Source of the DNA: Promethearchaeati archaeon SRVP18_Atabeyarchaeia-1
GTDB lineage: Archaea; Asgardarchaeota; Atabeyarchaeia; Atabeyarchaeales; Atabeyarchaeaceae
Direction: 5' to 3'
DNA length: 64,000 bases
Assembly (NCBI GenBank): GCA_037308085.1
Contig: CP147779.1
Location: forward strand, 896,001 to 960,000
Below the pieces are notes generated by a model, which saw only the letters and a list, made by a program, of their open reading frames with translations, did not search any database and was not told the DNA's origin. How positions within the stretch are numbered: position 1 is the stretch's first letter; each line of letters opens with the position of its first letter. Shown piece after piece: positions 3,188 through 55,465 of this stretch. Position numbers and translations under genes: made by a program.

Positions 3188-3437
3188 AGAGACAAGAAGC
3201 CGGTCTCAGCATAATCGCCTATCGACGCCCAGGTTCGATCGGCCTTCTTTGTGAAGATAGTAAACGAACTTGGTATTTAATGCGTCCCGAACATATGATT
3301 ACTGATTGGCACTATAGGCAAGTCCGAAACAGAGAGAGTAGGATGTGCTCAAGGTCACCCCTTTCTTCGTCTAGTTCCCTTTTCCAGCACTCTTCGGTTC
3401 ACAATTCGCAGTCGATATCGCACCGATTAAATGCTAT

Positions 3438-4695
3438 GGTTCTGTTAACTCTTCGGGTGGTGAGTTAACTGGGTGGCATCTGCTCCGGGGATTACCTTTT
3501 CGCCTCCAGGGTTCCCCTTCACCACTTCACCTGCCACTCCCTTCAGGCTGAACCGCAGCCCTGCACCGACAATATTCAAAGCCGCGTTCACGTCCCTGTC
3601 TACGAGCTTCCTGCAGCGTGGACAGTAGACCTTCCTCCCCGCGCATTCGACTATCTTAGAGCCACATATCGCGCAGGTTGAGGAAGTCTTGCTTGGATTA
3701 ACGTAAAACACGTGGATTCCCTCCCAGTGTGCCTTGTAATCTATTTGCCGCTGCAGCTCGGCGTAGCTCCAGCTGTTCATCCTTGCCCTGTAGTCCTTGC
3801 CCTGCCAGTTTCCCCTCCTGTAGAGTTTACGGATGCCTCTAATGTCCTCCGTGACTATGCCGAACTGGTTTTCCTTCGCTTGCTTCACTATCCTTGCTGA
3901 AGTGTTGTGCAGGATCCAGTTTACCTTGTTCTTCTGGATTCTTCCATATTTGGAGTAGAGCTGTCTCTTGACGCGGCAGTCGTCTCGCTTGAAGCCGCGC
4001 TTTGCTTGCCTGCAGTTCTCCTTGACCACGGTCGCCCTCGACAAGTCATACCTCTTCACATCTCCAGCCGAGGACGCAGTGGTTACATTGTCGAGGTTGC
4101 GGTCTACCCCGACTAGCCCCACAGGCTCAACCTGAGCAACCTCTTTCGTGAAGGCTAGTGACACGGCGGAGGCGGTCAAGCAGGCCGAGCGCACAGCACA
4201 CCCCTCAATAGACTGTAATGTGTAGGAGTTCAGGGGGATGTAGATGTATTCTCTTACCCTTACGGGTAGTCTGAGCTCGCCGTTGGTTATCCTGAAGCCG
4301 TAGCAGTCGGTCAGCATGAGCCTTGCTGCATGGGGCTTCTTCATCCTCTGCTGCTTCCCCAGCGCGTGCCTGTGGTTCCGGAGGATGCCCGCGGCCTTGC
4401 TGATCGCCGTCAAGCGGTAGTAGGTTGGCACGTCGTATCCTGCGAGTTGATGGTAAGCCTTCTTTGAGAGCGCCTTCATCGACGTAACATTCTCAGCTAG
4501 GCCAATTCGTATGCAGTCATTCACCATCTCTCTAAACTCGTTCAGGAGGTCGAGTAACTGAGGAGATGGCGTGTAGCTCTGCTTGACCGCCTTGACCGCT
4601 TGCATACCCAAGAAAGAGACTATTTCGGCTAATAAAACCACCATATGACCAAGGGGCTAGCAGCGCCAACTATCACTCGAAGAGTTATCAGAGTG
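3438..4695 (-). mobile_element. Non-autonomous TnpB-carrying element with imperfect TIRs and perfect 8-bp TSD
   Basis: TIRs 3438-3466 (GGTTCTGTTAACTCTTCGGGTGGTGAGTT) and 4668-4695 (reverse complement CACTCTGATAACTCTTCGAGTGATAGTT); AATGCTAT at 3430-3437 and 4696-4703; no transposase inside. Confidence 0.85.
3445..4605 (-). CDS. tnpB: RNA-guided endonuclease TnpB (intact RuvC D-E-D, Zn ribbon)
   Basis: VGVDRN, VTEDIRG, CAICG...CPRC, DRDVNAALNI; likely start MQAVKAV at 4605 by comparison with the second TnpB. Confidence 0.92.
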   Translation of the reverse strand: MQAVKAVKQSYTPSPQLLDLLNEFREMVNDCIRIGLAENVTSMKALSKKAYHQLAGYDVPTYYRLTAISKAAGILRNHRHALGKQQRMKKPHAARLMLTDCYGFRITNGELRLPVRVREYIYIPLNSYTLQSIEGCAVRSACLTASAVSLAFTKEVAQVEPVGLVGVDRNLDNVTTASSAGDVKRYDLSRATVVKENCRQAKRGFKRDDCRVKRQLYSKYGRIQKNKVNWILHNTSARIVKQAKENQFGIVTEDIRGIRKLYRRGNWQGKDYRARMNSWSYAELQRQIDYKAHWEGIHVFYVNPSKTSSTCAICGSKIVECAGRKVYCPRCRKLVDRDVNAALNIVGAGLRFSLKGVAGEVVKGNPGGEKVIPGADATQLTHHPKS

Positions 4696-4855
4696 AATGC
4701 TATCAATCTTTATATAGAGATTTTTCTCTCTTTTCGCACAGATAAGATAATAAATTCGGCACACCGTTCATATTCGTTTAGACTATGATCTAATTCTGCC
4801 TGATGTTCAAGTCTGACCTATATCAATGTATAAGCCCGGAGGTAGAATTCGAGCA

Positions 4856-54176: not shown

Positions 54177-55465
54177 GGTCCTGTTACCTCTTCGGTTGGT
54201 GAGTTTAAATAAGAGCTTTGGGTTGTCTAGTTTTATGCAGGCAGCTAAAGCGGTGCAAATACCGTACGAGCCCAAAAGTTGCGTTCTCAGCCTCCTCGAA
54301 ACCTTCAGAGATATGGTTAACTATTGTATCCAAGTTGGCCTAGAGAGGAATATGGCCTCAAGGTTCAGGCTACAAAGTGAGGTATACCACCAGCTAAGCC
54401 GTTTCGGACTCCACACCTGGTACACCCTCTCAGCCGTCGAGGTTGCCTGTGCTATTTTGAAGAACTACCGGAAAGCGAAGAGAAAGCGGCAGGACGTTAG
54501 GGTGCCGAGAGCCACGAAACTCACGGCTAAACTGGGAAATCAGGGTTATAGAGTTGTTGAAGGCGAACTGAGAATACCGATCAAGCCAAGAGAGTTCTTC
54601 TACGTCCCCTTGCACAAGAGGGCAGCGCAGTTCCTATCGGACGCCACGCTCAAGTTAGGCTCAATAACCTTGACTAGCACGGTTTCAGTGGTCTTCTCGA
54701 AGACCGCTGAGGTCACCGAACCGAGAAGCTATGTGGCGTACGACACGAATGAACGCTCAATAGATGGAGCCTACGTAAACGATGAGGCGGAACTGACTGT
54801 TGAAAGCCATGATTTATCGAGGGTTTCCGAGGTTAGGCACGGGTACTTTGAGCGAGTGCGGAGGACTCAAGCCAAGTACGCGAGAGATAGGCGGGTGGCA
54901 CGGAAAATCCAGAGGAAGTGGTTCGCCAACCAGAACAACAAGGTCAACACGATCTTGCATCAGGTGAGTTCAGCGATAGTTGGAAAAGCGAAAACCAGGG
55001 AGCACGGTATTATCCTCGAAGACCTTAAATATATTCGCAGGGCAATTAACAGAAGAATCTTGGGCGTCAACAGCTTCAACGGGAAAATTCAGAAGATAAG
55101 TAAGCACTCTAAGAAACTTAAGCGAAGACTGAACTCATGGAGCTTCCGCAAGCTGCAAACCTTCATTGAATACAAGGCATTGTGGACGGAAGTCAAAGTA
55201 GTCAAGGTGAACCCTTGGAATACTTCTGGGGTCTGTGCGGTGTGTGGGTGCGTTATGCGAGACCCGAAAGCGAAAACCCTGGAATGCTGCGGGATAGGCC
55301 GCCACGTAAATGCCTGCTTGAACATGCTGAAAGCCCAAGATGAAAGCCTGCGGTTCAGGCTGGATCGCTCCGCACATGTAGCCGTGATTAGTCCCCTAAG
55401 CAAGGCTATGAGCCAAAGCGGAGAAGTTAACCCAAACGGTTATCAAGCGCAGAGGTAACAGAACC
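54177..55465 (+). mobile_element. Second TIR-bounded TnpB element
   Basis: TIRs 54177-54202 and 55440-55465 (21/26 match); flanks CAAATAAG and TAAATAGG (6/8 degenerate TSD). Confidence 0.8.
54235..55458 (+). CDS. tnpB: TnpB-family protein with atypical RuvC-III (GRHVNA)
   Basis: VAYDTN, ILEDL, WSFRKLQTFIEYKA, CAVC...CC, GRHVNACLN. Confidence 0.88.
   Translation: MQAAKAVQIPYEPKSCVLSLLETFRDMVNYCIQVGLERNMASRFRLQSEVYHQLSRFGLHTWYTLSAVEVACAILKNYRKAKRKRQDVRVPRATKLTAKLGNQGYRVVEGELRIPIKPREFFYVPLHKRAAQFLSDATLKLGSITLTSTVSVVFSKTAEVTEPRSYVAYDTNERSIDGAYVNDEAELTVESHDLSRVSEVRHGYFERVRRTQAKYARDRRVARKIQRKWFANQNNKVNTILHQVSSAIVGKAKTREHGIILEDLKYIRRAINRRILGVNSFNGKIQKISKHSKKLKRRLNSWSFRKLQTFIEYKALWTEVKVVKVNPWNTSGVCAVCGCVMRDPKAKTLECCGIGRHVNACLNMLKAQDESLRFRLDRSAHVAVISPLSKAMSQSGEVNPNGYQAQR

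Follow-up and report, generated by a model that had tools for sequence, protein, structure and literature searches.

A TnpB/omegaRNA module in a probable non-autonomous IS6-like transposon of an Atabeyarchaeia genome, with a candidate target-adjacent motif on one side of its insertions

The presence of a tnpB gene within a unit that has inverted ends and a duplicated target raises two related questions, namely which transposase moves such a unit and what a TnpB nuclease may contribute to its persistence. The unit considered here occupies positions 3438-4695 of a window of 64,000 nucleotides (the whole stretch of DNA that was analysed), which corresponds to positions 896001-960000 of the 2.8-Mb single-contig genome of Promethearchaeati archaeon SRVP18_Atabeyarchaeia-1 (G000). 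With a probability of roughly 0.85, it is a non-autonomous insertion sequence whose sole cargo is a TnpB/omegaRNA (OMEGA) module and whose ends are those of an IS6-like DDE transposon. The family of TnpB elements to which it belongs is designated fam1, and its right end (RE) and left end (LE) are those on the 3' and the 5' side of tnpB, respectively. Two genomes served for comparison, one from the same genus (G001) and one from the same family (G002); the latter is that of Candidatus Atabeyarchaeum deiterrae, which confirms the Asgard host that the first-pass annotation of this DNA had considered probable.

The 1258 bp of the unit lie between two copies of AATGCTAT, one on the RE side (3430-3437) and one on the LE side (4696-4703), and are closed by terminal inverted repeats (TIRs), of which that at RE (3438-3461, GGTTCTGTTAACTCTTCGGGTGGT) overlaps the final codons and the stop of tnpB, and that at LE (4672-4695) reads CACTCTGATAACTCTTCGAGTGAT inward. 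The ends match in inverted orientation at 18/24 positions, the outer 3 nt being different (GGT vs CAC), and they enclose a single long open reading frame (ORF), tnpB, and no transposase. This description, which can be read directly from the sequence, is that of the first-pass annotation, and the comparisons with other copies and with empty sites that it had proposed are both in line with it. Two further full fam1 copies in the genome, with 85-87% identity to the window element, have the same boundaries, since the homology begins at 3438 and ends within 2 nt of 4695, and each has its own target-site duplication (TSD), GAGCTCCA/GAGCTCCA in one case and TGGTACGG/TGGTTCGG in the other; a fourth copy is internally deleted. 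In G001 and G002, the orthologous intergenic region is uninterrupted and shorter than the occupied locus by ~1262-1268 bp, with a single homologous 8-mer and no TIR-like sequence. At the occupied site, both junctions are bridged by contigs from two separate studies, and no contig joining across the element was present among those population contigs, a negative that is uninformative on the absence of an empty allele because contigs drop rare variants. The unit at 3438-4695 is, therefore, a discrete insertion that has duplicated 8 bp of target DNA of no fixed sequence, and ~60 independent insertions carry differing 8-bp duplications, with 7-8/8 identity between the two copies.

The sequence of the ends points to the IS6/IS26 family, whose TIRs follow the consensus GGTTCTGTTGCAAA, in which the GG and G7 hardly vary (PMC6807381). 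RE reads GGTTCTGTTAACTCTTCGGGTG (GGTTCTGTTAAC vs the consensus GGTTCTGTTGCAAA), so that its first 9 nt are those of the consensus, with G at positions 1, 2 and 7 and a GGTTCTGTT identical to the published IS6/IS26 start; the IS257 end cited in the first-pass annotation agrees with the same published consensus. The LE tip is degenerate in the window copy, where the outer GG is lost, but reads GGT or GGC in relatives, and the LE tips found elsewhere are AGC, CGC, TGT, GGC or GGT. In G001, the copy on contig C62 (L023:1385-1470) bears subterminal sequence of the RE kind (...GTTGACTCGGTAGCATC) at both its left and its right end. A genome-wide scan with these ends recovered ~60 such termini in five groups: fam1, a second TnpB family (fam2; ~11 copies of ~1290 bp, with 37-41% protein identity to fam1), gene-less MITEs (miniature transposable elements with inverted repeats), a 6554-bp unit and a 4419-bp unit. 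Both the MITEs and the DDE transposase with matching ends that a search of this kind had been suggested to reveal were, thus, found.

The 6554-bp (6.5-kb) TIR-bounded transposon, at genome positions 549276-555829 (L016:1001-7554), has a perfect 8-bp TSD (TGGAGAAC), a right TIR that agrees with the fam1 RE at 22/24 positions and, at each end, two tandem CTGTTAAC-N6-GGGTGAT sub-repeats. It encodes the only intact IS6-like transposase of the genome, a protein of 383 aa encoded at L016:1621-2772 on the minus strand, in which a SWIM finger and an IS1/IS1595-type zinc finger are followed by a DDE_Tnp_IS240 domain (PF13610, 8e-18, 65.4 bits, cut-off 27), and whose residues D210, D269 and E308 are invariant in 7 homologues; the same unit carries a 995-aa Eco57I/MmeI-like N6-methylase-type gene and two ORFs without Pfam match. 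The 4419-bp (4.4-kb) unit, at genome positions 614149-618567 (L017), has a TSD conserved at 7/8 positions, TIRs with the same 24 nt as the fam2 right end, a truncated DDE paralogue of 251 aa without the zinc fingers, and several ORFs without family match; an additional nested TIR-like end is present in it at genome position 618499. The family has three genomes with these TnpBs, and the DDE transposase occurs once in each; in a distant Nitrosopumilus genome, the DDE loci share a TIR variant (GGTTCTGTGAAGTT...) with the TnpB elements found there. Taken together, the matching ends and the TSDs indicate that an IS6-like DDE transposase encoded elsewhere in the genome probably moves 3438-4695 in trans, as the first-pass annotation had proposed, and the intact DDE gene in the genome lends this proposal further support. 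Mobilisation in trans by such an enzyme is the best-supported mechanism because the Y1 transposase genes of the genome are unlinked to these elements and because IS605-type transposition leaves no duplication.

The tnpB ORF (3445-4644, minus strand) has 399 aa as listed, and 386 aa from the start conserved among relatives, M14, which corresponds to the ATG at 4605; a TATA-like box, TTTTATTA (4630-4637, minus strand), lies ~29 nt upstream of this ATG and, as read from the sequence only, may be the archaeal promoter of a leaderless tnpB mRNA. The product matches the Pfam family PF07282 Cas12f1-like_TNB (1.9e-20, 73.2 bits, cut-off 26.3) and the NCBIfam model NF040570 guided_TnpB (123.7 bits, cut-off 100), and its alignment to solved TnpB/Cas12f chains spans RuvC-II, the Zn finger and RuvC-III. 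The residues D181 and E266, the D349-R-D351 motif and the CxxC..CxxC Zn ribbon are all present in the fam1 TnpB, and the ratio of nonsynonymous to synonymous substitution rates (dN/dS) over the body of tnpB is 0.12-0.25; the gene is under purifying selection. Only 7 nt separate its stop codon from the RE terminus, so the right TIR is coding.

In addition, the ~155 nt next to the right terminus (3438-3592, minus strand) are predicted to encode a structured RNA that resembles an omegaRNA scaffold and whose end coincides exactly with the RE terminus. Its 3' hairpin is formed by GTTAACTC-N10-GAGTTAAC, with the 3' arm supplied by the TIR, and has undergone C-G to G-C and A-U to C-G swaps. A hairpin of this kind, with an 8-bp stem, is present at RE only and has no counterpart at LE, so the possibility raised by the first-pass annotation that the inverted ends are paired hairpins of the IS605 type did not bear out. 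RNAalifold on 16 sequences returned 28 pairs, 10 of them with compensatory changes, and the covariance model built from this alignment recovers the fam2 right ends as well, with 30-38 bits. In the alignment of 29 sequences that was then scored, 90.5% of cells are paired, vs 28-43% with slid partners, 14 pairs have changed on both sides, and the covariation score was reached by 0/500 shuffles. The rate of synonymous substitution (dS) over the last 52 tnpB codons, in comparisons with G001 and G002, is 0.15-0.35, vs 0.33-0.98 in the body of the gene, that is, 3-6 times lower, which is the pattern expected of an overlapping functional RNA. In the terminal ~155 nt, fam1, where this segment is coding, and the MITEs, where it is non-coding, have 72-80% identity. 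There are seven of these gene-less MITEs, of 257-269 bp (L039:1501-1769, L042, L044, L046, L047, L048 and L049), all found in G000 and none found in G001 or G002; apart from the TIRs, they contain only the scaffold, preceded by a conserved TATA-like box (TTGATTTATAT) next to the inner edge of the left TIR, and they look like omegaRNA-only cassettes. A search of Rfam with 3300-4850 gave no family at E <= 1. A 216-nt contig covering 3462-3677 (scaffold and tnpB 3' end) is the sole match on a 1.9-kb stretch in a run that is labelled metatranscriptomic and flagged 'probably DNA'; it was considered too weak and was not used.

The insertions were oriented by tnpB as 5'-flankA, TSD, LE ... RE, TSD, flankB-3'. 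The three nucleotides directly 5' of the LE-side TSD of the window copy are TTG (4704-4706, minus strand; CAA on plus), and the same triplet precedes the LE-side TSD in 6/7 fam1 insertions and in 5/7 MITEs, two of the latter at a 1-nt offset, while TTA is found there in 7/10 fam2 insertions; the background frequencies of TTG and TTA are 0.019 and 0.009, respectively. In a discovery set of 43 insertions with a recognisable TSD, position -3 is W in 43/43 (1.18 bits), position -2 is T in 39/43 (1.41 bits) and position -1 is R in 39/43 (0.63 bits), with no signal at the other flank or TSD positions (<= 0.41 bit each). The replication set, for which the hypothesis was set beforehand, consists of 22 unique independent metagenome insertions picked by their ends and TSD alone; here, -3 is weak (0.29 bit), -2 is T in 22/22 (2.0 bits) and -1 is G in 13, A in 6 and T in 3 (0.65 bit), with no signal at all other positions (<= 0.25 bit). 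Pooling of both sets gives T at -2 in 61/65 insertions. The motif forms part of the target DNA in the empty sites of relatives, and NTTR or TTTR is the type of protospacer adjacent motif (PAM) used by Cas12f enzymes. On the basis of these 65 insertion sites, the one-sided N-T-R motif is a candidate target-adjacent motif (TAM).

In IS605 and IS607 elements, for which TnpB homing is understood, the transposase itself inserts beside the TAM and no duplication is left. In the elements described here, the geometry would be a different one, and may be outlined as follows. The IS6-like DDE transposase would bind the ends and insert the element in trans; having no fixed target, it would place ~1 in 16 insertions beside W-T-R in the right orientation. 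Transcripts of TnpB omegaRNAs read out of the right end (PMC13565253), and transcription of the scaffold would, likewise, leave the element at RE, so that the 3' extension of the scaffold, the predicted guide, would consist of the 8-bp duplication and the adjacent flankB (predicted template 3418-3437, minus strand, that is, the TSD and ~12 nt of flank, as deduced from the geometry and from TnpB biology). As N-T-R stands directly 5' of the duplication on the opposite side, such a guide would match the unoccupied allele beside a TAM: in the empty allele, the match directly follows N-T-R, as a TAM-adjacent protospacer, while at the occupied locus, it would follow ...AACC and be spared, the left junction matching over 8 nt only. 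The TnpB ribonucleoprotein (RNP) would then cut only empty alleles, in sister or homologous chromosome copies, and repair from the occupied copy would spread the insertion. Fixation would be driven only for insertions that happened to lie next to a TAM, and this would explain the near-universal one-sided motif that is observed. That the guide is aimed at the empty site and that TnpB homing acts as a filter on insertions is considered moderately likely. Since nearly all the surviving insertions adjoin it (61/65 with T at -2), fixation may further depend almost wholly on TnpB-driven homing after random insertion, TnpB being a drive filter and not a restorer of excised donors, a proposition whose odds are put at slightly better than even.

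Several observations weigh against the interpretation of the locus given so far. As regards the transposase, the best NCBIfam match of the 383-aa protein is IS6, at full length, with 120.7 bits, a score below the cut-off of 125 (IS1 gives 47 bits), and the membership of archaeal 'IS6' elements in the family is disputed, Harmer and Hall 2019 (PMC6807381) arguing that their kinship with IS26 is a distant one at best. As regards the ends, the window copy and its two genomic siblings, which are 13-15% divergent from each other, are without the terminal GG at LE and may no longer be mobile. As regards the scaffold, its single-sequence fold is no more stable than that of shuffles (z = -0.19), an unremarkable energy that leaves the structural claim to covariation only, and the alignment used for the pair counts was fitted to the covariance model and, hence, favours the structure somewhat. 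As regards the flank motif, there is a weak mirror signal, with A at +2 past the RE-side TSD in 29/65 insertions.

This mirror signal also bears on the alternative that best survives, according to which the elements are mobilised by the DDE transposase, but N-T-R reflects a target preference of this enzyme or an asymmetric transpososome, is not a TAM, and leaves TnpB irrelevant to the fate of the insertion. The lineages of TnpB and of DDE transposase and TIR vary together in this genome, fam1 and the MITEs going with the 6.5-kb unit and fam2 with the 4.4-kb unit, a further point against a role of TnpB, since, with this confounding, TTG vs TTA could follow the transposase. Indeed, fam1 and the MITEs probably share one transposase, as the TIR of the MITEs closely resembles the right-hand one of the 6.5-kb unit, and the argument that the flank motif follows the type of TnpB and omegaRNA and not the type of TIR was dropped on this ground. 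In favour of such a preference, TTA stands at this offset on one side of the 4.4-kb DDE unit, a unit devoid of TnpB; against it, the 6.5-kb DDE unit (n=1) is without T-R there in either orientation. These two units are the only DDE-only comparison in this genome, and are too few to separate a TAM from a transposase preference. Nevertheless, the target preferences of DDE enzymes are normally symmetric about the staggered cut, and the N-T-R signal is strongly one-sided, because T at -2 on the LE side in 61/65 insertions contrasts with A at the mirror position in 29/65. Moreover, the motif stands exactly where a TAM must be if the guide starts at the RE boundary, and it has the N-T-T-R form known for Cas12f PAMs. 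A transposase preference is the main rival explanation of the motif, and is regarded as less likely than a TAM.

Much less probable is a role of the TnpB-omegaRNA complex in the choice of the target during transposition, for example by docking on the TAM and recruiting the transpososome, instead of homing after insertion. The exact spacing between the motif and the insertion point would suit such a role, and RNA-guided recruitment of a transposase is known for CRISPR-associated transposon (CAST) systems; however, a donor copy carries a guide to its own flank and not to the new target, different copies have nothing but the motif in common in their 8-bp targets and flanks, the fam1 TnpB keeps all its catalytic residues, unlike the nuclease-dead Cas12k, and the element contains no adaptor genes (tniQ, tnsC).

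An IS200/IS605 element of the ordinary IS1341 type, transposed in single-stranded form by a Y1 TnpA in trans, with subterminal hairpins in place of TIRs and a coincidental 8-bp repeat, would find some support in three intact Y1_Tnp genes of the genome (1573364, 478195 and 1955413; L200, L201 and L202), in the 8-bp-stem hairpin of the right end and in the usual classification of tnpB-only elements as IS1341, but can practically be dismissed, and was rejected given the TSDs and TIRs in all copies, since the ~60 independent insertions carry distinct 8-bp duplications, none of which IS605-type transposition produces (PMC13565253, PMC3119063), LE is without a matching hairpin, the ends are inverted repeats matching the IS6 consensus, the variable TSD abuts LE where a conserved tetra- or pentanucleotide would stand, with the conserved T-R 8 nt away, and none of the fam1 or fam2 copies has a Y1 gene next to it. 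One Y1_Tnp gene adjoins a distant TnpB (~26% identity to fam1), which indicates that classical IS605 elements coexist with the TIR/TSD type in this genome.

The occurrence of such elements extends beyond fam1 and beyond this genome. The window contains a fam2 copy of 1289 bp at 54177-55465, with TIRs that read GGTCCTGTTACC..., a TSD conserved at 6/8 positions (CAAATAAG/TAAATAGG) and TTA directly 5' of the LE-side TSD. In fam2 TnpBs (L030, L032, L033, L034, L037 and L024), RuvC-III reads D-R-H or N/G-R-H vs D-R-D in fam1, so that the canonical third catalytic Asp may be lost or relocated; despite this altered RuvC-III, fam2 has reached ~11 copies with TSDs and the TTA motif. Alignment of TnpB identified relatives with 37-79% identity in Bathyarchaeia, Nitrososphaerota (including Nitrosopumilus and Nitrosotalea) and Asgard archaea, and most of the archaeal relatives are likewise 1.2-1.3 kb long, with GGTTCTGTTA at their termini and TSDs of 8 bp. 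According to these sequence comparisons, elements of this type are a widespread archaeal lineage; the first-pass annotation had described an RNA-guided nuclease captured by an IS6-like element, and although the placement of TnpB in such an element stands, the idea of a one-off capture is too narrow.

Across Asgard archaea, Bathyarchaeia and Nitrososphaerota, these elements constitute a large natural sample, and they offer a testable geometry, with the TAM on one side and the TSD plus flank as the protospacer, for a TnpB that serves a DDE transposon with variable, duplicated targets. If it holds, the RNP would recognise only the precise empty allele, and the homing filter would be a second, independent means by which an RNA-guided nuclease is coupled to a transposon, as well as a prokaryotic parallel to the Fanzors in TIR transposons. 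The omegaRNA-only MITEs could act as natural guide cassettes, and the compact TnpB (~386 aa), together with a defined scaffold, is an ordinary candidate for nuclease characterisation.

Comparison with known systems shows that the principle of a DDE-linked, trans-mobilised TnpB is already known from a study published in 2023 (PMC10691335), and the claim of a new system made in the first-pass annotation was, to that extent, overstated. Altae-Tran et al. 2023 describe DDE-associated TnpBs, in branches DDE-1 to DDE-6, whose inverted ends are symmetrical, together with solo TnpBs that are moved in trans, the mobilisation in trans being deduced from the near identity between the ends of solo TnpBs and those of transposase-bearing elements (PMC10691335). 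The present element is like those branches in its symmetrical inverted ends, in the position of the tnpB 3' end near one of them (criterion 250 bp there; the stop is at 7 nt here) and in having ends common to a solo TnpB copy and a transposase-bearing unit, here the 6.5-kb DDE unit; it differs from them in its probable IS6-like partner and in a candidate TAM that lies outside a variable 8-bp TSD, an arrangement not described in the available text of that paper. The DDE partner families named in the accessible portions of the sources are IS630 (PMC10691335) and, in a 2026 review, ISL2, IS630 and IS1031 (PMC13565253), with IS6 not among them; the same review suggests inflexible target recognition as a reason for the rarity of DDE pairings in prokaryotes (PMC13565253). 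A literature search found no paper linking TnpB with IS6-like elements, or Atabeyarchaeia with TnpB, within the text available to it, and a prior listing in the supplement of PMC10691335 is possible. What is added here is the covariation-supported scaffold at the right end, the scaffold-only derivatives and the one-sided N-T-R motif.

With the IS6/IS26 family, including its archaeal 'IS6-like' group (PMC6807381), the element shares the TIR start GGTTCTGTT, the 8-bp TSD and a transposase, acting in trans in the proposed scheme, that matches DDE_Tnp_IS240. It differs from that family in that 3438-4695 carries a TnpB/omegaRNA module and no transposase, in the N-terminal SWIM and IS1-type zinc fingers of the cognate transposase, and in the carrier of the latter, which is a 6.5-kb cargo transposon and not a 0.8-kb insertion sequence. 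Its TnpB is like those of the IS1341 group and ISDra2 in the canonical RuvC D-E-D and DRDxN residues and in a predicted omegaRNA that extends across the gene's 3' end up to the right boundary, and the arrangement of a predicted guide taken from the flank and a candidate TAM to the left of the empty site is that of ISDra2 TnpB and its reRNA. Unlike IS200/IS605 elements, it has TIRs, an 8-bp TSD and no fixed insertion site, and the candidate TAM is separated from LE by the duplicated 8 nt, which would be the first 8 nt of the predicted guide. The nearest parallel in eukaryotes is that of Fanzor1 and Fanzor2 in TIR transposons (Bao and Jurka 2013, PMC3627910; PMC13565253), where a TnpB-family nuclease is likewise carried by a TSD-making DDE transposon. 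In Fanzors, the TSD, which is fixed (TA, TTAA), is recognised within the TAM, and its 3' copy belongs to the scaffold (PMC13565253), whereas in the archaeal elements the TSD is variable and would belong to the predicted guide, and the protein is a typical prokaryotic TnpB of ~390 aa.

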